DNA of 64,000 nucleotides from Candidatus Marinacidobacterales bacterium. GTDB taxonomy: Bacteria > Acidobacteriota > Vicinamibacteria > Marinacidobacterales > SMYC01. The stretch is from assembly GCA_965224085.1 (NCBI GenBank), contig CBDCYI010000004.1:160001-224000 (forward strand). Reading direction: 5' to 3'. This document shows, in pieces, positions 911 through 64,000 of the stretch (position 1 is the stretch's first letter; each line of letters begins with the position of its first letter). Made by a program: the position numbers and the translations under genes. Under the pieces are notes generated by a model. That model made no database searches, had not been told where the DNA came from, and saw nothing but the letters and a program-made list of their open reading frames with translations.

Positions 911-1992
911 ACCGCCTCGAGCAGCAAGAAAAACGGCCCGGTGCGCACCCGCCCAAAGAGCATCACATCGAGCTTCATCAACTGCGATGCGACCGTCAAC
1001 GGCGCGTGCGCCCAACGGCCGATTTCGGGCTTCGTCGAAACATAGTCGTGATCGTGCCCATCATGACCATCCCCATGGTGATGCGGCGCCTTCTCCCGGT
1101 CTACTTTCTTCTTCGCACCGCCAAAGAAGTTGTGCTCGATGAGCGGCAGCATGAGGTCTTCGAAGACGGCCTTGAAGACAACATTGTAATAACGGATGCC
1201 AGCGATGCGGAAACCGGCGCGCACGAGCACGTCGGCGAGTTGCTCGTAGCTTCGAAGCACGTTTTGATGATCGGATTTTCGCTCGCGTTCCGGCGCGTTG
1301 TCGACGAGGCCTCTTTGGTCGAGCCAGCGCACGGTCTTGTTAACGCCGCGTTGAAACGCCGCGAGCCGCGAGCTCATCATCACGTGCGAGTACAAGAAGA
1401 GCTTCCCGCCGGGTCTCAGGACGCGCCGTGCTTCGGCGAGCATCGCATCGACACCTTCTTCATCGAGGTGCTCGAGGACATCGAGCGAATAGGCTTTGTC
1501 GAAACTCGCGTCCTCGAACGGAAGCAGGCGGATATCGCCGCGCGTCAGATCCACCGTTTTCAGAGGTTCGGGCGCGAAGTGCGCGCCGGCATCGATCCCG
1601 ACAAGCTGGCCGCAGCGCGGCCGCGTGAAGTAGACAAAGCGGCCGTTGCCGCAGCCGATGTCGAGGATGCGATCCTTGCTCGACGGCGCAAGCATCTTCA
1701 GCATCATGTCCATTTTGATCCGCGCGGATAGAAAGAGCGGGCGGATCGCGTCCGTCCGGTAAAGGAACGCTTCTTCCGCGTATTCCGTGAGGCTCTCGAA
1801 CGTATCGGCCGGTGGTCGCAAGTCGAGATAGCCTCGCTCCGCGAGCGCCGGAAAGAGGCGACGGCAGCTCGGGCATCGCATGCCTTCGCCATCCGGTTCG
1901 AGCTTGGGCGGTTCGAGCTTGGGCGCGCCGCCGTTCGCCTGGGCCCGACAGGCAGGACAGTGCAGCACGCTCTTCAAATATTCCGAGATCAT
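907..1992 (-). CDS. Class I SAM methyltransferase with N-terminal Trm112-like Zn ribbon
   Basis: CPAC...CPSC; ILDIGCGNG motif I; DVLEHL; His-rich patch HHHGDGHDGHDHD. Confidence 0.85.
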   Translation of the reverse strand: MISEYLKSVLHCPACRAQANGGAPKLEPPKLEPDGEGMRCPSCRRLFPALAERGYLDLRPPADTFESLTEYAEEAFLYRTDAIRPLFLSARIKMDMMLKMLAPSSKDRILDIGCGNGRFVYFTRPRCGQLVGIDAGAHFAPEPLKTVDLTRGDIRLLPFEDASFDKAYSLDVLEHLDEEGVDAMLAEARRVLRPGGKLFLYSHVMMSSRLAAFQRGVNKTVRWLDQRGLVDNAPERERKSDHQNVLRSYEQLADVLVRAGFRIAGIRYYNVVFKAVFEDLMLPLIEHNFFGGAKKKVDREKAPHHHGDGHDGHDHDYVSTKPEIGRWAHAPLTVASQLMKLDVMLFGRVRTGPFFLLLEAV

Positions 1993-3338
1993 TGCGGCTC
2001 GCCCCGGCCGCTTCCCGCGAGGTCATCGCGCGCCACGAAATAGCGGCTCACGACCGAGACCAACCGTGGGGGCACCTCGTAGATCTGATTGTGAACGATG
2101 TCGCGCCATACGAGACGCTGGCGATCCATCAGTCCGAGGCCGAACTGCACCATGAGCGCTACGTTCCACAGCACGACGGCGCCTGCGAGTGTGGCGACGC
2201 CGGCACGCCTGACGTGAGGCACGACGAGCGCGAAGAACGCCGCTCCCCACACGGCGAAGATCACGGTCGCTCCAACGAATCGACGTGCGCCAAAAGCCCC
2301 CGCTTGCGTCCATGAGTCCACTGCCCCGGAGATCCAGACTTGCGACAAGAAACCAAGAAAGAGTGCTAACCCCGCCTCGCGCTCGCGGCGCAGAAACATC
2401 AACCCGCCCGCCGTGAACAACAGGAGGACCGGGCTCCAAAAATAGAGGCCATGTTGGGGAGAGAAGAGGACTTGAAAAAAATGCGGCGAGTACCACGCCA
2501 TCTTGTTTTGCACGTGCGACGATGGCAGCGGCTCTCCGTTCAGAATCTGGTACACGACGAGCTGGGGGAGGAAAACGAGAAAAGCGGCGAGCCCGAACGC
2601 CGCGAGCCGCTTCACGCGATCGTCCATCGCCACCGCCGGGACGAGCGCAGCCACCGCGAAGAACAGATCCTGCAAGCGCACGAGCGCCATGAGGCCCGCC
2701 GACGCGCCCCAAACCGCCCAGCGGAACGCGCTCGGCCGGACCCGCACCCAAGCTCCGAGACTGAAGAAGACGGCGACCGCAAACAAAGAAGCCGCGTGGC
2801 TCATTCCGGGTGCGATGTACATGTAATAAGCGACAGGGGTGCCCCACCAAAGGACGAGGATGGCGACGAGGCAGACGAAGGGCTCGGCGAAGCGGCGGGC
2901 GAGCCGGTAGCTGAGGAAAAGACCGATGGCGCCATAGAGCGCGGAGGCGAGGGTGACGGCCAGCCGGTAAGTCTGCGACATACCGTCCGCAGCCACATCC
3001 ACACCGTGGCTTCCGACAAAAACGAGCCCGGCATGCGCCGCAAGGTAAAAGGGCGACCAGAGCGCGGCCGTGCCGATCTCGCCGAAGTTCAGCTTCAAGC
3101 CGGTTGCCGTCTCGCGGTCGAGGAAGGTCTCCTTGAAACCTTGCCGGCCGTCCGGATCCTCTTCGTAGAAATGGGTGTACTCGTCGGCAAAGTCGAGGTC
3201 CCCGTCGAAGAGCACCGATGGTAAATAAGAGAAATATTCCACCGCGTCCGATTCGGAGATCCGAGGGCTCACGAGAACGAGCGAGCCGAGCAGCAGCACC
3301 CCCAAAACGAGCTCCGTTTTGTCCCGGAAGATCTTCAT
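1989..3338 (-). CDS. Multi-pass membrane glycosyltransferase (GT-C/PMT-like)
   Basis: SDAVEYFSYLPS loop after first TM, many TM helices, FGARRF motif; 4-bp overlaps with both neighbours. Confidence 0.7.
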   Translation of the reverse strand: MKIFRDKTELVLGVLLLGSLVLVSPRISESDAVEYFSYLPSVLFDGDLDFADEYTHFYEEDPDGRQGFKETFLDRETATGLKLNFGEIGTAALWSPFYLAAHAGLVFVGSHGVDVAADGMSQTYRLAVTLASALYGAIGLFLSYRLARRFAEPFVCLVAILVLWWGTPVAYYMYIAPGMSHAASLFAVAVFFSLGAWVRVRPSAFRWAVWGASAGLMALVRLQDLFFAVAALVPAVAMDDRVKRLAAFGLAAFLVFLPQLVVYQILNGEPLPSSHVQNKMAWYSPHFFQVLFSPQHGLYFWSPVLLLFTAGGLMFLRREREAGLALFLGFLSQVWISGAVDSWTQAGAFGARRFVGATVIFAVWGAAFFALVVPHVRRAGVATLAGAVVLWNVALMVQFGLGLMDRQRLVWRDIVHNQIYEVPPRLVSVVSRYFVARDDLAGSGRGEPQ

Positions 3339-7989: not shown

Positions 7990-8874
7990 CTACTGGTTCG
8001 GGAAGAAATTCAGCCCCGTCACGAACGAGACGATCACGGCGATGGCGGTGAGCGCGATGCACACGACGGCGAGAAGCAAGTGGTCGCCTCGCTCCGGCTT
8101 TAGCGGGTCGAGAAACTTCGCCACAAAATAGCCGCCCACGAGCCCGCCGAGGTGAGCCTGGTTGTCCACGCCGCGCATAACGATCCCGAAGACCGCGAAC
8201 ATGATGGCGTAGAACTTCATCTGCTGCTCGAGGGCGGAGCTTCCCGTGCGCCGGCTGTAATACCAGAGCGCGCCTAGGAGCCCAAAAACCGAGGCGGACG
8301 CCCCGATGGTCAGCTGCGCTCCCGCGAGACCCACGAAGGATAAAAGCCATCCAAACGGTAAATAAGGATAGATCAGCATCGCCGCGCTGCTGAACGCGAA
8401 GCCGGTGATACATGCCACGGTATAAATGATGATCATCCGGCCCGCGCCGTAATACTCCGCGACGGCGGGCGCGAAGCTTCGGACGATATACATGTTGAAG
8501 CCAATATGCATGATCCCGCCATGAAGCCACCCCGCGCTCAGAACCGTCCACCAGCGGCCGAGCTCGAAGACGGGGATCTGGCCGCTCGCCCCGAAGATAA
8601 AGAGCGCGTTGGTGCTCGGGCTCAGCATGTTCATGAACCCGCCCATCTGGATGCCGGAGGGGTCCACGGCGAGCGTCGCGATGTAGAGGAAGACGGAGCC
8701 GGTGATGACGAGCTTGACGAAGCCCATGTCGCGGCCGAGCGCACGGATGGCGCCCCCGAAACCCCACATGCTGGGATTACTGCGCCCGCAGTTGAAGCAC
8801 GTCTCGTCGTTCACGCCGACGAGCTGGCCGCACGAGGAACAAAGGACGGATCCCGACTTTTGTCGTTCGAACAT
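7990..8874 (-). CDS. Rhomboid intramembrane serine protease with N-terminal Zn ribbon
   Basis: CSSC..CFNC, HGGIMHIGFN, GASAS, NQAHLGGLVGG. Confidence 0.9.
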   Translation of the reverse strand: MFERQKSGSVLCSSCGQLVGVNDETCFNCGRSNPSMWGFGGAIRALGRDMGFVKLVITGSVFLYIATLAVDPSGIQMGGFMNMLSPSTNALFIFGASGQIPVFELGRWWTVLSAGWLHGGIMHIGFNMYIVRSFAPAVAEYYGAGRMIIIYTVACITGFAFSSAAMLIYPYLPFGWLLSFVGLAGAQLTIGASASVFGLLGALWYYSRRTGSSALEQQMKFYAIMFAVFGIVMRGVDNQAHLGGLVGGYFVAKFLDPLKPERGDHLLLAVVCIALTAIAVIVSFVTGLNFFPNQ

Positions 8875-9024
8875 CTTTGGTGGCATTCTAGCAGGCAAAA
8901 GAGAATTTCACTCGCCTGGGTACTTTCGAGTGAACGAACGATTTCGGTCACTCCCCGATGACCTCCGCCCACGCGGGCGGTGCCCTTGCTGTCAAATTGA
9001 GCTGGTGACTGACAGAATGGTCCA

Positions 9025-9729
9025 ATGAAGACCGATGCGCCAAGCTACCACGGCTATCGATTTCCACCGGAAATCATCAGCCACGCCGTCTGGCTCTACC
9101 ACCGATTCTGCGTGAGCTTTCGAAACGTCGAAGAGCTGCTTGCTCAGCGAGGCATCACGGTTTCCTACGAAGCGATCCGACTTTGGTGCATCAAGTTCGG
9201 GCCGGAATACGCTCGGCGACTGAAGCGTCGGCAGGGTCGCCTTGGTGACACGTGGCACCTGGACGAGGTCTTCATAAAGATACAAGGCGAACGCCAATAC
9301 CTCTGGCGCGCGGTAGACCAAGATGGTGATGTGATTGATATCCTCGTCCAGCCTCGCCGTGATCAGAAAGCCGCCAAACGATTCTTCCGCAAGCTGTTGA
9401 AAGGGCAAGGCCGTCCGCCCTGGCAGCTGGTCACCGACAAACTGAGAAGCTACAGCGCCGCTCACCGCGAGGTCATGCCGTCCGTCGTCCACGACACTGA
9501 CCAGTACAGAAACAACCTAGCCGAAGTCTCGCACGAACCGACGCGACAACGGGAACGACAGATGCGGAAGTTTAAAACTCCTGGGCAGGCGCAACGATTC
9601 TTGACCGTGCATGGACTCGTGCAAAACCTCTTTCGCGTCGGACGGCATTTGTTGCAAGCGCATCATCATCGGGAGCTACGAGACCGCGCTTTCATCGTCT
9701 GGCAGGAGGTAACCTGTGCCGTCCGATGA
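9025..9729 (+). CDS. IS6-family DDE transposase
   Basis: YHGYRFPPEII, WHLDEVF, YLWRAVD, VTDKLRSY, NNLAEVSH. Confidence 0.95.
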   Translation: MKTDAPSYHGYRFPPEIISHAVWLYHRFCVSFRNVEELLAQRGITVSYEAIRLWCIKFGPEYARRLKRRQGRLGDTWHLDEVFIKIQGERQYLWRAVDQDGDVIDILVQPRRDQKAAKRFFRKLLKGQGRPPWQLVTDKLRSYSAAHREVMPSVVHDTDQYRNNLAEVSHEPTRQRERQMRKFKTPGQAQRFLTVHGLVQNLFRVGRHLLQAHHHRELRDRAFIVWQEVTCAVR

Positions 9730-9790
9730 GAGCAAAGGAAATCAGCTCGACGCAATAGGTTCGCTCGCTCAACGTCAACTAATAAGAAAC

Positions 9791-11044
9791 TCAGGGTGTA
9801 GCGTTGGCAAGAGGTGTGAGAGTGACGTCAAAACCGAGCTCCCTTAGGCGTCGTGTCATTCGTATTGTGAGCTGTTCCTTGTCGCGTTGATGGAAGTAAT
9901 CGGCACCCAGTTCCCGGTATGGAATCTCATTGTGGAGCATGTAGTAGACGGCGGTGATGATGGAGGCGGCGACGGCGACGACAGCTTTCTTGGGGCCCCG
10001 ACGAGATTTGAGCCGGAAGAACTGGGCACGCAGATAGCTGTCGCGCTTGCGGCTTGCCGCCCAAGCGGCTTGGACAAGAGCGGTCTTGAGCCATGGAGCC
10101 CCTTTGCGGGTTTTCTGAGAAAAGCGTTTACCGGCACTCTCATGAAGCCGTGGGCATAGACCGGCCCAAGAGCGAAGGTGTCCGGCCGTTGGGAATGCCG
10201 AGACATCGGGTCCGATCTCGGCGACGAGAATGGCCGCCGTGGCTTCACTGATGCCCGGGATCGTCACCAGAAGCTCGACGGCCGATCGAAAAGGGCGCAG
10301 GCTCTCTGTGATACGGGATTCGAGCGCGCTCACTGAGGCTTCAAGCTGCTCGATATGATTGAGATGAAAACCCAACAGGAAACGATGATGGTCGGTAACG
10401 TAGCCCTCGAGCGCTGCGCTCAATTCCTGTTCAGTGGCTTTGAGTCGGCTTGAGCCCAGCTCACTCAGCTTGTGAGGGTCGCTTTCTCCCGCAATGATCG
10501 CTCGGAGAATCGCCCGCCCGCTTACTCCCAAAATCGTGCTAATCACGCTCGTCAATTTGATGTTCGCGTCTTCCAACGTCTTTTGAATTCGCTGGGTCTC
10601 CCGAGCGATTTCTCGAACGAACTGCTTTCGCGTTCGGGTCAGCTCTCGCAGTTCCTGGATCGGCGTTGGCGGAACGAAGCTAGCTCGAATGAGACCATGG
10701 GCAAGCAAATCCGCTATCCACAAGGCATCACTGATATCGCTCTTACGACCCGGCATGTTCTTGACGTGGGCCGGTTGTGCCAACACCAACTCAAAATGAC
10801 CTTCGAGCACATGCCACACCGGCTTCCAATACACTCCGGTCGCTTCCATCGCTACAATCGTGCAACCGCACTGCCCCAGCCAATCCAACATTTCCAGCAA
10901 TTCGCTCGTGGCCGTGCCGAACACACGCGTCTCGCGCACCACCTTCCGCTTCGTCGCTACCCGCACGCAAGCCGTAATCGATTTCTGGTGGACGTCCAAT
11001 CCGGCGCATCGCTTATGAACCACTCTCATCGCAGCCTCCTTCAC
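9791..11044 (-). CDS. IS110-family DEDD recombinase/transposase
   Basis: GLDVH, MEATG, KSDISDA (DEDD); WAGLCPRLHESAGK (catalytic Ser region). Confidence 0.95.
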   Translation of the reverse strand: MKEAAMRVVHKRCAGLDVHQKSITACVRVATKRKVVRETRVFGTATSELLEMLDWLGQCGCTIVAMEATGVYWKPVWHVLEGHFELVLAQPAHVKNMPGRKSDISDALWIADLLAHGLIRASFVPPTPIQELRELTRTRKQFVREIARETQRIQKTLEDANIKLTSVISTILGVSGRAILRAIIAGESDPHKLSELGSSRLKATEQELSAALEGYVTDHHRFLLGFHLNHIEQLEASVSALESRITESLRPFRSAVELLVTIPGISEATAAILVAEIGPDVSAFPTAGHLRSWAGLCPRLHESAGKRFSQKTRKGAPWLKTALVQAAWAASRKRDSYLRAQFFRLKSRRGPKKAVVAVAASIITAVYYMLHNEIPYRELGADYFHQRDKEQLTIRMTRRLRELGFDVTLTPLANATP

Positions 11045-11258
11045 GTCGCACCGGCGTGGAGCCCACGAACTTGTAATCTAATAGACGCGCTCAACTATCC
11101 CAGCTGGAATAGAAAACGCAATTTGGGGTACGCGCAGGACTCCCAGCCAAACTTGACAACGGGCTCAGTCGCACCAACGTTAAGCCGACCTCTGAGCCGG
11201 TGCCACCTTCACAGACTACCGCGTTTCATTCATTCGGGGTGGCCGTCAGGCCGTGGAA
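11045..11258. ncRNA. Candidate IS110 bridge/seek RNA in the non-coding end
   Basis: About 210 nt upstream of the recombinase with several stems and target/donor-like segments (AACTTGACAA 11150-11159, CAACGTTAA 11175-11183, CTAATA 11078-11083); transcript strand and ends unknown. Confidence 0.65.
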
Positions 11259-11272
11259 AACTTGACAATACC

Positions 11273-11374
11273 GTCATGGGTCACCTTGTCTTCGGTGCCA
11301 TTCTGGGCGGCAGCTACGGGTGGATCTCGATCCCGGCGTGCTCCTCTTCAGGACTGGCAGCCGAGGCGCCCTGA
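11273..11374 (+). pseudogene. 3' remnant of a membrane-protein gene cut at the IS6 end
   Basis: MGHLVFGAILGGSYGW...* begins right at the IS6 right IR. Confidence 0.5.
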
Positions 11375-11385
11375 CCCGAGTAGAT

Positions 11386-11418
11386 CGACCCCCTGGACAT
11401 CAGTCCGAGGGGTCGACT
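11386..11418. terminator. GC-rich hairpin (possible terminator)
   Basis: TCGACCCC-CTGGAC-ATCA-GTCCGA-GGGGTCGA inverted repeat after the stop at 11374; no U-tract. Confidence 0.4.
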
Positions 11419-11459
11419 TCCCCCTCGAGTTTCGAGGACCAAACACGGTAGAGAAAAAG

Positions 11460-12221
11460 ATGATTCAAAACGAGGACCAACCGACACGACTTCGTTGCTC
11501 AGAAATCTGGGGCGGCATTGGGAATACGGATCTGGATGTTTCTACCAGACCAGTGACGACGAGCTTATTCTCCAGCGCATCCGATAGCGACAGCGGCGGT
11601 GATGTTTATTACTTCAGTGTCTGCTCCCGCAACACGATCGTTCGGATCGCGATGGCCGACGTGATGGGCCACGGACGTGCCGTGAGCACGATGAGTCAGT
11701 GGATGTACACCGCTCTCGTCGAGAGCATGGACAGCATCCATAGTAACGACATACTCGGCGATCTCAACCGCCTTGCCAACGAACGAGGTCATGAAGCCAT
11801 TACCACAGCGGTAGTGTTCAGCTTCCGGGTCGACAACTCCGAGCTGTACCTATCGTATGCGGGGCACCCGCCCGTGTGGATTCGCCGGCACAGGGAGGGC
11901 GTGTGGCAGCCGCTTGCACAAAAGCAACAGACTCAGCCAATGAACCTCCCGCTGGGTATGTTTCCTGGTACCAAATACAGCCAGCAGCAGCTTCGCCTCG
12001 ATTCGGGCGACCGAACTTTGGTGTTCACCGACGGCCTCATAGATGCGCCGAGCAAAAACGGCCAGCCTTTCGGTCACGAGCGGCTTCGAGCCGCTCTGGA
12101 AGAGGCTGGCGGCGGGACTCTGTTCCACCTCAAACAAAGTGTTCTCGCGGCCGTGCGCTCGCATACCGGCGGCTCCCTTGGTCACGACGATTTGACGCTT
12201 ATTGCGGTAGATGTGCATTAG
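11460..12221 (+). CDS. PP2C/SpoIIE-type Ser/Thr phosphatase
   Basis: GGDVYY, ADVMGHG, YAGHPP, FTDGLID, DDLTLI. Confidence 0.9.
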   Translation: MIQNEDQPTRLRCSEIWGGIGNTDLDVSTRPVTTSLFSSASDSDSGGDVYYFSVCSRNTIVRIAMADVMGHGRAVSTMSQWMYTALVESMDSIHSNDILGDLNRLANERGHEAITTAVVFSFRVDNSELYLSYAGHPPVWIRRHREGVWQPLAQKQQTQPMNLPLGMFPGTKYSQQQLRLDSGDRTLVFTDGLIDAPSKNGQPFGHERLRAALEEAGGGTLFHLKQSVLAAVRSHTGGSLGHDDLTLIAVDVH

Positions 12222-62301: not shown

Positions 62302-62311
62302 AATAAGAAAC

Positions 62312-63565
62312 TCAGGGTGTAGCGTTGGCAAGAGGTGTGAGAGTGACGTCAAAACCGAGCTCCCTTAGGCGTCGTGTCATTCGTATTGTGAGCTGTTCCT
62401 TGTCGCGTTGATGGAAGTAATCGGCACCCAGTTCCCGGTATGGAATCTCATTGTGGAGCATGTAGTAGACGGCGGTGATGATGGAGGCGGCGACGGCGAC
62501 GACAGCTTTCTTGGGGCCCCGACGAGATTTGAGCCGGAAGAACTGGGCACGCAGATAGCTGTCGCGCTTGCGGCTTGCCGCCCAAGCGGCTTGGACAAGA
62601 GCGGTCTTGAGCCATGGAGCCCCTTTGCGGGTTTTCTGAGAAAAGCGTTTACCGGCACTCTCATGAAGCCGTGGGCATAGACCGGCCCAAGAGCGAAGGT
62701 GTCCGGCCGTTGGGAATGCCGAGACATCGGGTCCGATCTCGGCGACGAGAATGGCCGCCGTGGCTTCACTGATGCCCGGGATCGTCACCAGAAGCTCGAC
62801 GGCCGATCGAAAAGGGCGCAGGCTCTCTGTGATACGGGATTCGAGCGCGCTCACTGAGGCTTCAAGCTGCTCGATATGATTGAGATGAAAACCCAACAGG
62901 AAACGATGATGGTCGGTAACGTAGCCCTCGAGCGCTGCGCTCAATTCCTGTTCAGTGGCTTTGAGTCGGCTTGAGCCCAGCTCACTCAGCTTGTGAGGGT
63001 CGCTTTCTCCCGCAATGATCGCTCGGAGAATCGCCCGCCCGCTTACTCCCAAAATCGTGCTAATCACGCTCGTCAATTTGATGTTCGCGTCTTCCAACGT
63101 CTTTTGAATTCGCTGGGTCTCCCGAGCGATTTCTCGAACGAACTGCTTTCGCGTTCGGGTCAGCTCTCGCAGTTCCTGGATCGGCGTTGGCGGAACGAAG
63201 CTAGCTCGAATGAGACCATGGGCAAGCAAATCCGCTATCCACAAGGCATCACTGATATCGCTCTTACGACCCGGCATGTTCTTGACGTGGGCCGGTTGTG
63301 CCAACACCAACTCAAAATGACCTTCGAGCACATGCCACACCGGCTTCCAATACACTCCGGTCGCTTCCATCGCTACAATCGTGCAACCGCACTGCCCCAG
63401 CCAATCCAACATTTCCAGCAATTCGCTCGTGGCCGTGCCGAACACACGCGTCTCGCGCACCACCTTCCGCTTCGTCGCTACCCGCACGCAAGCCGTAATC
63501 GATTTCTGGTGGACGTCCAATCCGGCGCATCGCTTATGAACCACTCTCATCGCAGCCTCCTTCAC
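62312..63565 (-). CDS. IS110-family DEDD recombinase/transposase
   Basis: 417-aa translation identical to 9791-11044. Confidence 0.95.
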   Translation of the reverse strand: MKEAAMRVVHKRCAGLDVHQKSITACVRVATKRKVVRETRVFGTATSELLEMLDWLGQCGCTIVAMEATGVYWKPVWHVLEGHFELVLAQPAHVKNMPGRKSDISDALWIADLLAHGLIRASFVPPTPIQELRELTRTRKQFVREIARETQRIQKTLEDANIKLTSVISTILGVSGRAILRAIIAGESDPHKLSELGSSRLKATEQELSAALEGYVTDHHRFLLGFHLNHIEQLEASVSALESRITESLRPFRSAVELLVTIPGISEATAAILVAEIGPDVSAFPTAGHLRSWAGLCPRLHESAGKRFSQKTRKGAPWLKTALVQAAWAASRKRDSYLRAQFFRLKSRRGPKKAVVAVAASIITAVYYMLHNEIPYRELGADYFHQRDKEQLTIRMTRRLRELGFDVTLTPLANATP

Positions 63566-63779
63566 GTCGCACCGGCGTGGAGCCCACGAACTTGTAATCT
63601 AATAGACGCGCTCAACTATCCCAGCTGGAATAGAAAACGCAATTTGGGGTACGCGCAGGACTCCCAGCCAAACTTGACAACGGGCTCAGTCGCACCAACG
63701 TTAAGCCGACCTCTGAGCCGGTGCCACCTTCACAGACTACCGCGTTTCATTCATTCGGGGTGGCCGTCAGGCCGTGGAA
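63566..63779. ncRNA. Candidate bridge/seek RNA, copy 2
   Basis: Same sequence as 11045-11258. Confidence 0.65.
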
Positions 63780-64000
63780 AACTTGACAATACGCCACGAC
63801 AACTTCTCGTCTCACAGCGCCGTATGGTAACCGGCGTCGCGGTCTGCGAGTTACAACAGATCCGCCGCCATACGGGATCGAGCGAGCCGTCGATTCATTC
63901 CGTTCCCGCACAGCTTCGCAAGGAATGGAATCTTCCGTTGAAGTGTGGGATGATCCTTTGCGTCCAACAAGATGTTTATCGAGCCCGGAGCCCATCTTCA

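Follow-up and report, generated by a model that had tools for sequence, protein, structure and literature searches.

Does the non-coding DNA upstream of an IS110-family recombinase gene encode an RNA through which the recombinase recognises both its target and the end of its own element? The question is raised by a 64,000-nt stretch of the genome of Candidatus Marinacidobacterales bacterium (contig CBDCYI010000004.1, positions 160,001 to 224,000; called the window below and numbered from its first letter), in which an IS110-family insertion sequence is lodged in the right terminal repeat of an IS6-type element. An original prediction, made from the letters of the window, had placed a candidate bridge or seek RNA carrying guides to the IS6 repeat in the non-coding end of this insertion sequence. 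From a comparison with homologous elements, we conclude that the left non-coding end very probably encodes a bridge RNA of some 160 nt (11206–11046), in the sense of the recombinase, with a target guide and a donor guide. Four of the traits by which bridge and seek RNAs are recognised occur together at this locus: an element with a DEDD (RuvC-like) plus Tnp recombinase, a fold with two internal loops, covariation with the target and covariation with the donor.

Ends of the element and its empty site

The element and the two halves of its target are located as follows.

9781–11260, minus strand: insertion sequence of the IS110 family, with a length of 1480 bp and, in addition, one copy of the 2-bp core
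9770–9780, plus strand: target half on the left, within the right terminal repeat of the IS6, with the core, CAACGTCAA-CT
11261–11272, plus strand: core and target half on the right, reaching the IS6 terminus, CT-TGACAATACC

The boundaries were set by aligning nine to ten copies from the same genome and the IS6 empty site. The core, CT on the plus strand, stands at 9779–9780 and again at 11261–11262, with no further duplication; on the recombinase strand, it reads AG. Genome-wide, there are 33 occurrences of the 21 bases immediately before the window element: in 30 instances they run on as CTTGACAAT, diverging after ATACC, in one (the window) they run into the element and in two into other sequence. 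Because these 30 of the 33 IS6 right ends continue uninterrupted with a single CT (CAACGTCAA-CT-TGACAAT), the site when empty reads CAACGTCAA-CT-TGACAATACC and makes up the final 21 bases of the IS6 right end. The source genome (12 contigs, 6.87 Mb) harbours nine long copies of the element and one fragment of 679 nt. On the plus strand, all nine copies with a left end read GGAAAA-CT-TGACA and then diverge, and seven of the nine begin AA-CT-AATAAGAAAC, the other two having lost the last bases. The non-coding DNA of the element consists of a 216-nt left end, upstream of the recombinase gene, and a 14-nt right end after its stop codon.

A target guide that covaries with the insertion site

For comparison, homologues were collected by a scan of one genome per species, which yielded 497 relatives; the best 80 loci were kept (56–66% protein identity), and 56 distinct left non-coding ends make up the alignment A1. 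Seven groups occur in multiple copies, which diverge exactly outside N5-AG-TT(C/T)(T/C)CCAC on the left, with the boundary between AG and TT, and GTTTC-N4-TAG on the right, with the boundary behind AG. The terminal motifs of these groups served to set the ends of single-copy loci. The guide counts exclude loci in which no left end (L042, L043, L059, L117) or no right end could be detected, while three loci with a mis-set left-end start or guide (L051, L097 and one more) were kept in and give rows with 0–1 of 5 matches. Natural head-to-tail junctions carry one AG between the right and the left end.

11150–11159, minus strand: target guide on the 3′ side of the target loop; UUGUCA at 11159–11154, AG at 11153–11152 and UU at 11151–11150, equal to AACTTGACAA
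62302–63781, minus strand: another copy of the element, near-identical, whose bridge RNA lies at 63567–63727

The exact 10-nt copy of core and right flank that had first drawn attention to the non-coding end is far from a chance event: AACTTGACAA occurs four times in the window (11150, 11259, 63671, 63780), where 0.06 occurrences are expected and none of 100 shuffles reaches this number, and it lies once in the non-coding end and once at the junction for each of the two element copies. In a blind scan of every RNA column against every target position, in both senses and over 62 element–site pairs, the five top pairs form one diagonal, on which RNA positions 103–107 match flank positions −7 to −3 beside the left end in the same sense, with an identity of 0.82–0.97. 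An anchored test on 60 pairs gave identities of 0.78–0.95 at −7 to −3, as against 0.28–0.41 after shuffling (0 of 500 shuffles reach the observed values). There are 38 distinct target guides, 24 of which match 5/5 at every cognate site and 31 at least 4/5. The core AG of the guide (A108 and G109) is invariant in all 56 sequences. The covariation of non-coding ends with target flanks, through which the original prediction had proposed to check itself, is thus found in the guide columns (60–62 pairs, 0 of 500 shuffles), and the postulated guide to the IS6 repeat is upheld in that 11154–11158 and the adjoining AG lie at the RNA positions that covary with the flank. The family supports five specific bases (11158–11154, UGUCA); the extra U at −8 matches in the window element and is no feature of the family.

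In 0.93–0.97 of the pairs, the two bases after the guide (UU) are the same as the two with which the left end begins, compared to 0.82–0.84 after shuffling (0 of 500). To judge from these alignments, they behave as expected for the handshake guide described in the available text of Hiraizumi 2024 (PMC11208158).

The 9-mer AACTTGACA occurs 99 times in the genome: nine occurrences are the guide itself, 22 lie behind a left end, 33 are unoccupied right ends of IS6 elements of the window type and 35 lie elsewhere, many of them in IS6-like ends. At least 68 perfect 9-bp sites in the genome do not adjoin the left end of the element. The specificity for the target would be modest, with five plus two firmly read bases and a short second contact, taken up below.

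In a number of Vicinamibacterales genomes (L076, L096, L086, L100, L094, L072), related elements stand directly behind one another's right ends, L072 being a head-to-tail tandem. The L094-type target guide, TCTGT-AG, equals the L075-type right end, and the L100-type guide, TTCTT-AG, equals the L094-type right end. By these matches, some relatives seem to target the ends of other elements in the family.

A donor guide that covaries with the right end

11076–11084, minus strand: donor guide on the 3′ side of the donor loop; C-UAUU at 11084–11080, AG at 11079–11078, then AU
9781–9790, minus strand: right end; GUUUC at 9790–9786 and UUAUU at 9785–9781, then the core; GTTTC-N4-(T)AG ends nearly all homologues

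The donor guide of the window element is identical to its right end (UAUU-AG) at six of seven positions, with one mismatch, at −7; the right-end UUAUU accordingly matches the guide at four of five. A blind scan over 44 elements paired RNA positions 177–180 with right-end positions −7 to −4 in the same sense (identity 0.70–1.0). In the anchored test (57 rows), identity was 0.65–0.98 at −7 to −3; shuffles gave 0.28–0.38 at −7 to −4, where 0 of 500 reach the observed values, and 0.95 at the conserved position −3, where 5 of 500 do. The distinct donor guides number 26; the match is perfect for 14 of them and reaches 4/5 or more for 25. In this test, neither the target guide nor the donor guide showed a match at −8 and beyond.

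The AG core of the donor guide is invariant or present in at least 90% of the sequences. The core had been predicted to read AG on the recombinase strand, and AG indeed follows both guides in all or nearly all sequences. The short match to the donor end that had been noted earlier, CTAATA (11078–11083), falls on RNA positions that covary with the right end across the homologues. Matches of six or seven nucleotides, such as CTAATA and TCAACTA, are meaningless on their own, and CTAATA gains its meaning only through the comparison of homologues. TCAACTA (11091–11097) spans the 3′ strand of an inner hairpin and a conserved GAGCGCG box, outside the columns that covary with target or donor.

Fold and strand of the RNA

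11046–11206, minus strand: core fold of the bridge RNA, 161 nt, with a closing stem (P1) around a target-loop and a donor-loop domain; covariance model R1
11196–11203, minus strand: 5′ strand of P1, GCACCGGC, pairing with 11048–11055; changes on both sides in 5/8 pairs
11048–11055, minus strand: 3′ strand of P1, GCCGGUGC, ending 6 nt upstream of AAGGAGG (11041–11035)
11190–11187 with 11148–11145, minus strand: P2 of the first domain, from the RNAalifold consensus
11160–11176, minus strand: P3, inner hairpin of the target loop; 99.6% of cells paired, one compensatory pair
11137–11143, minus strand: 5′ strand of P4, GGAGUCC, the outer stem of the donor loop, pairing with 11058–11064; compensatory changes in 7/7 pairs

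RNAalifold, applied to A1, folds the second domain as P4 with an inner hairpin. Over the 56 sequences, 97.3% of the cells in consensus pairs can pair, as against 88.9% after shuffling (0 of 500 shuffles reach this) and 35–45% with slid partners. Compensatory changes affect 17 of the 29 consensus pairs, including those in P1 and P4 listed above. An all-against-all scan of the columns of A1 was too noisy to bring out further helices.

All six strings quoted in the original prediction are present in the DNA at the coordinates given there, GGCTCAG and CTGAGCC beginning at 11162 and 11192; the stems built from them fared less well. The TTTGG/CCAAA stem is not conserved (50.4% of cells paired, compared to 53.4% in shuffles), and the GGCTCAG/CTGAGCC hairpin is paired in 57.1% against 56.6% in shuffles, with only GGC/GCC conserved.

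In the conserved helices, G·U or U·G pairs occupy 176 cells and A·C or C·A combinations 12. Because G·U so outnumbers A·C, the folded strand is, on the pairing pattern, the recombinase strand. R1 recovers both window copies (121.7 bits, E 8.5e-28), on the minus strand only; its search of the genome returned at least nine matches (150 of 2958 candidates scored), and in nine of nine copies the match is on the recombinase strand. These data bear directly on the suggestion that the RNA is antisense to the recombinase, a transcript of the plus strand. That suggestion draws on the plus-strand reading of the core, CT, which is the core of IS621; on the opposite strand, the 176 G·U and U·G cells would become mismatches (compared to 12 A·C and C·A cells), and R1 has no plus-strand match at either copy in the window. 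We therefore give the antisense RNA next to no credence. The original prediction had offered "antisense or non-canonical layout" as a pair: the first half falls with the G·U count, and the second half stands, since the guides lie on the 3′ sides of the loops, a layout that differs from that of IS621.

The 5′ sides of the loops

Opposite the two guides lie the 5′ sides of the loops, and the left end itself carries a segment to which one of them bears a resemblance.

11177–11186, minus strand: 5′ side of the target loop, GGCUUAACGU, from the consensus fold; contains CAACGTTAA, to which the original prediction had pointed
11115–11136, minus strand: 5′ side of the donor loop, UGCGCGUACCCCAAAUUGCGUU, highly conserved, with a same-sense resemblance to left-end positions 21–33
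11223–11260, minus strand: left-end terminus; TTTTCCAC at 11260–11253, hairpin GGCC-TGAC-GGCC at 11252–11241, ACCCCGAATGAAT at 11240–11228, the segment that the 5′ side of the donor loop mirrors, and GAAAC at 11227–11223

In the target loop, UUAAC (11183–11179) could pair, on the recombinase strand, with the core G and the right-flank TTGA. A C stands opposite the core G in 90% of the pairs, and flank position 1 is complementary in 0.47 of the pairs, against 0.31 after shuffling (z 3.4 in one of four registers). The copies with an intact right junction carry AA before CT on the plus strand in seven of seven cases, which fits this pairing. A short second target contact, UUAAC with G and TTGA, is likely, if weakly supported. 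Taken over both DNA strands, the target excess is confined to flank position 1 and the core G, and no donor guide complementary to the start of the left end was found.

An 8/9 match to the left flank (11175–11183) had been listed among the best target matches. It sits in the 5′ side of the target loop and lacks support at the level of the family. With one mismatch or less, CAACGTCAA occurs 27 times in the window, where 12.8 occurrences are expected; for that 9-mer, about 0.04 are expected per 214 nt, a chance expectation that rises if other flank words are allowed, such that the match is only mildly unusual. The same match would acquire a role if both sides of the target loop paired with one DNA strand, over 19 contiguous bases: the 5′ side, UUAACGUUG (11183–11175), with CAACGTCAA left of the core, and the 3′ side with CT-TGACAA. 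The 8/9 match does lie at the right place in the fold for such an arrangement, and the donor loop offers an analogous same-sense relation, between its 5′ side and the left end. Against it, when the 5′ side is locally aligned with the right flank in the same sense, 682 of 1000 shuffles do as well over 12 nt and 497 of 1000 over 40 nt, register scans peak at z 2.7–3.1 and at flank position 1 only, and AACGTT is self-reverse-complementary and the target a near-palindrome, which makes a chance match easier. We regard this one-strand arrangement as improbable. In the bridge RNA that we favour, then, the target-loop 3′ side would carry the guide and the 5′ side the short contact with the opposite strand.

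The donor loop presents a different relation. Its 5′ side resembles positions 21–33 of the left end of its own element in the same sense, with a mean local score of 5.92, against 4.82 for non-cognate ends (0 of 2000 permutations, 49 distinct pairs). Complements to this loop side, with two mismatches or less, were limited to three scattered matches within 48 elements, all in coding sequence, and no complement to the start of the left end was seen, either in the aligned donor-loop 5′ sides (by inspection) or in the donor scan. On the target loop, the 5′ side shows no relation to the donor, the comparison with the right and left ends of the element reaching a maximum z of 2.9. The donor-side mirror might be a distal donor contact, an RNA mimic of a DNA site bound by protein or a regulatory pairing with an outward transcript; these are guesses.

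The left-end region concerned has conserved features of its own. G34, A35, A36 and C38 are invariant in A1, and the only inverted repeat seen in the element is of 5 bp, GTTTC (−12 to −8 of the right end) with GAAAC (+34 to +38 of the left end). A hairpin located 8 nt inside the terminus is present in most homologues and is supported only by a stem sequence that visibly differs from one to another; it is not more stable than mononucleotide shuffles are on average (−8.0 versus −7.3 kcal/mol). The terminus region is kept in three miniature derivatives of 141 bp.

Weighing the bridge RNA and its alternatives

A number of results weigh against a bridge RNA of the kind described, and they are gathered here. 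On the 5′ side of the target loop, a comparison with the right flank in fixed registers, in both senses, brought out nothing beyond flank position 1; a search at all offsets over 45 nt of either flank reached a maximum z of 2.7, and local alignment was negative or marginal (for the complement over 12 nt, 55 of 1000 shuffles do as well). A handshake in the donor loop was sought by comparing the two bases after the donor guide with the right flank, and is not supported (0.32, against 0.30 and 0.21; 125 and 20 of 500 shuffles). The same-sense likeness of the donor-loop 5′ side to left-end positions 21–33 fits none of the published pairing rules consulted. Folded as a single sequence, 11030–11270 does no better than shuffles (z −0.11). 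A search of Rfam 15 over 8500–12000 (E up to 10) returned two chance snoRNA-like matches and none within 11045–11260, a negative of limited reach as it is not established whether Rfam 15 includes any bridge RNA model. Scans for promoters of the sigma-70 type found none in 9700–11400, nor across the natural junction of right and left end in L072. Finally, the homologues are related, so that shuffles overstate the significance of the covariation; the 38 distinct guides nevertheless argue against inheritance alone.

Expression is weakly hinted at by contigs from RNA libraries of one sponge-metatranscriptome study, which counts for little in favour of the RNA, as the contigs reveal neither strand nor ends and DNA carry-over is possible. 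Contigs from all four runs (X1–X4) cover 10997–11095, and two of them reach 11168 (spans 10929–11168, 10908–11095, 10998–11168 and 10997–11095), thereby including the donor domain, part of the target domain and the start of the gene. The runs gave no contigs over most of the recombinase gene or over 11169–11192, which proves nothing.

Could the region work without any RNA guide, as a leader or promoter region in which the copies of the flank are leftovers of imprecise excision or protein-binding sites? The RNA is a prediction from the comparison of sequences, which tells against our reading and leaves room for this one, and the AGTT of the 10-mer is conserved family-wide, hence not specific to the target. 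Leftovers or binding sites would have to account for 38 guide words that track 38 sets of insertion sites, for 26 donor words that track right ends and for five helices maintained by compensatory changes, and we hold such an explanation to be very improbable.

A bridge RNA may also be made and then cut down. In this alternative, processing yields a shorter active RNA like a seekRNA (70–100 nt), with the target-loop domain only, and the donor domain is supplied by a separate molecule or a longer precursor. According to the available text of Siddiquee 2024 (PMC11187229), seekRNAs of 70–100 nt are more abundant than the longer form, and in Hiraizumi 2024 (PMC11208158), as far as its available text goes, the two loops of one synaptic complex come from two RNA molecules. 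P1, on the other side, encloses both domains and has the strongest covariation (5/8 pairs compensatory), which speaks for one transcript folding as a unit at some stage, and the contigs span the donor domain into the target domain (10929–11168), though contigs cannot show ends. We think that processing of this kind is rather unlikely, and continue with the bridge RNA of about 160 nt.

A model for target choice

By analogy with IS621 and the seekRNA systems, the recombinase and its RNA would act, after excision, on a circle in which the right end is joined to the left end by AG. As the target guide is identical to the recombinase-strand flank abutting the left end, UGUCA-AG would pair with CT-TGACA on the plus strand of the window. 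The donor loop would bind the junction of the circle and the target loop the ..AA-CT-TGACA.. site, the strands being exchanged at the 2-bp core. Insertion would follow in one orientation, in this instance 12 bp inside the IS6 right terminal repeat.

The recombinase

9791–11029, minus strand: recombinase gene, 412 amino acids, ATG at 11029, AAGGAGG at 11041–11035

The open reading frame extends over 9791–11044 on the minus strand and matches DEDD_Tnp_IS110 (PF01548, E 4.4e-28) and Transposase_20 (PF02371, E 1.8e-23). Because all homologues begin there, the likely start is the ATG at 11029, behind AAGGAGG. The protein scores 292.8 bits with the NCBIfam model NF033542, "IS110 family RNA-guided transposase" (cut-off 140). 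Its C-terminal half aligns with the structure of the IS621 transposase (8wt6, E 1.3e-10) and with ISCro4 (E 6.4e-08), and the alignment to 8wt6 matches up the EATG, D..D and ES motifs. The catalytic residues of IS621 are named in the available text of Hiraizumi 2024 (PMC11208158); D12, E62, D98, D101 and S298, located where the alignment puts the three motifs, are the putative catalytic residues of the window recombinase. The nearest relatives in plasmid records come from Burkholderia (57.9% identity), Streptomyces (45.8%) and Mycobacterium avium (39.7%), and because of these identities we place the enzyme, on its sequence, in an IS110 group of recombinases of about 400 amino acids that is distant from IS621. 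The clade of the window element has recombinases of that size, 40–46% identical to the IS110 relatives in Streptomyces and Mycobacterium.

Comparison with known bridge and seek RNAs

According to the available text of Durrant 2024 (PMC11208160), the IS621 RNA lies in the left end, its first loop binds the target and its second the donor, and the core is CT on the top strand; guides of 8–9 nt, in the same sense as left target plus core and right end plus core, occupy the 5′ sides of the loops, and the 3′ side of a loop pairs with the top strand over 4–7 nt. Measured against that description, the window element shares an IS110-family recombinase of the DEDD/Tnp kind, an RNA encoded within the long left end, ahead of the gene and in the same orientation, and two domains of stem, internal loop and hairpin, target first and donor second, whose guides include the shared 2-nt core. 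Two bases after the 3′-side target guide match the donor, like a handshake. It differs from IS621 in that the covarying same-sense guides (five specific bases plus core) are found on the 3′ sides of the loops (alignment columns 161–168 and 255–261), and in that the core is AG on the recombinase strand, taking the "top strand" of the published descriptions as the recombinase-sense strand. A long-range P1 encloses both domains, the guides are shorter and the recombinase of 412 amino acids is only distantly related (E 1.3e-10). At the level of the RNA, the 3′-side guides end in AG, as in IS621. Because same-sense guides on the 3′ side are combined with an AG core on the recombinase strand, the window element looks like an IS621-like element whose recombination site is read on the strand opposite the genes.

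For seekRNAs of the IS1111 type, short RNAs with a stretch complementary to either strand of the target, the available text of Siddiquee 2024 (PMC11187229) gives the complement of the top strand first and the match to the bottom strand second, an order reversed in ISEc21, of the IS110 type; IS1111-type elements have their non-coding region downstream of the recombinase gene and subterminal inverted repeats of 11–13 bp. The window RNA resembles these seekRNAs as a short RNA from a non-coding region with what looks like the same guide order: the bottom-strand match is present on the 3′ side, and the top-strand complement on the 5′ side is weakly supported. Unlike the IS1111 type, the RNA lies upstream of the recombinase gene, as in the IS110 type. 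A downstream RNA and subterminal inverted repeats of 7–17 bp, which define the IS1111 subgroup, were not found: the one inverted repeat seen is the 5-bp GTTTC/GAAAC.

A preferred target inside the terminal inverted repeat of another mobile element, entered in one orientation, is shared with a known case from the IS110/IS1111 family, from which the window element differs in its IS6-family host, its subgroup and the position of its RNA. In ISPpu10 (IS110), a DNA stem-loop beside the paired bases is described as adding specificity, in the available text of bioRxiv 10.64898/2026.03.19.712850. That stem-loop belongs to the target; the conserved hairpin of the window element is in its own left end, on the donor side.

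Taken together, the features might amount to a third configuration in the IS110 family, in which the RNA lies upstream, the site is read on the strand opposite the genes, the guide order is IS1111-like, the core is AG, the guides are on the 3′ sides and the donor has an extra determinant, the left-end segment mirrored in the donor loop beside the conserved hairpin and the GTTTC/GAAAC pair. We put this forward tentatively, as a possibility that we do not favour. If it held, the donor would be contacted some 20 bp away from the crossover, or the RNA would mimic a DNA site bound by protein. A catalogue of 32,190 predicted bridge RNAs with 86 covariance models exists (bioRxiv 10.64898/2026.10.21.760802, available text); its models are absent from the searched release, Rfam 15. 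Many predicted bridge RNAs deviate from the IS621 fold, according to the available parts of Durrant 2024 (PMC11208160) and of bioRxiv 10.64898/2026.10.21.760802, and, in the latter, the deviating models still covary with target and donor. The family of the window RNA may already be among these 86 models, and its layout may have been reported there or in the supplements of Durrant 2024.

Derivatives, further IS110 elements and the IS6 host

The second copy in the window (62302–63781) lies between GCGCAACGTCAA-CT and CT-TGACAATACG, in a site that resembles the IS6 end but has another context. The three 141-bp miniatures lie outside the window (C4:29374-29518, C4:1724559-1724712 and C9:777459-777609) and consist of left-end bases 1–68 joined to the last 73 bases of the right end, without loop domains or recombinase. 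Two of them follow an IS6 end, GGTATTGTCA-AG, and the third comes immediately after a full copy. Their fusion junction also occurs in RNA-library contigs of runs X2 and X4, with loose ends at 11193. From their structure, the miniatures look like non-autonomous elements moved in trans.

The source genome is very rich in insertion sequences. The IS110 transposase model has 61 matches in it, 38 of them above the cut-off, in at least five classes of size and score, with open frames of 363–365, 428, 475, 487–496 and 339 amino acids. R1 also scores a distant RNA at L122 (C5:677100-679700; 1982–2135, minus strand; 30.2 bits, E 7.9e-06), upstream of an IS110 type with a frame of 475 amino acids. Both 3′-side segments of this RNA end in AG, and therefore the layout with an AG core is not limited to the family of the window element. 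In the type of 363 amino acids (C5:1162157-1163143 and seven further copies), a conserved non-coding stretch of more than 300 nt lies downstream of the gene, as in IS1111. By eye, boxes in that DNA resemble the window RNA (CAGAGGTCG.., GGAGCACCC, GTAGAT); a covariance search with R1 beside this type detected no RNA (E 0.95).

The transposase gene of the IS6 host precedes the insertion (9025–9729, plus strand; an IS6-type DDE transposase, PF13610, E 6.3e-38). This IS6 element has 44 matches in the genome, 29 of which span about 750 nt or more. On the left side (window 8950–8990), the similarity among the copies starts at query position 1, 3, 15, 32, 40–41 or 81; either the copies differ in their left terminus, then, or flanking sequence is common to some of them. 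In a second IS6 type, 83% identical (C9:13012-13651), the left repeat contains the IS110 element twice. Downstream of the insertion lies a gene with a SpoIIE/PP2C-type phosphatase domain (11461–12221, plus strand; PF07228, E 1e-33, scanned as the longer frame 11253–12221), whose likely start is the ATG at 11461, about 190 bp past the IS6 end. The composite IS6 and IS110 insertion occupies the upstream region of this gene.

Significance

The window RNA is an ordinary, well-supported member of a class catalogued in tens of thousands. What the locus adds is a fully mapped natural example, in which the ends of the element, the empty site, the fold, the target guide and the donor guide can all be read, from an IS110 clade remote from IS621. 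The site that the element prefers, the terminal repeat of a different insertion sequence, is available in dozens of copies in the same genome. The case also demonstrates that a genuine RNA guide can be recognised by reading raw sequence. Should the flipped polarity and the mirror on the donor side prove true, they would bear on donor recognition, on directionality and on natural scaffolds that can be reprogrammed.

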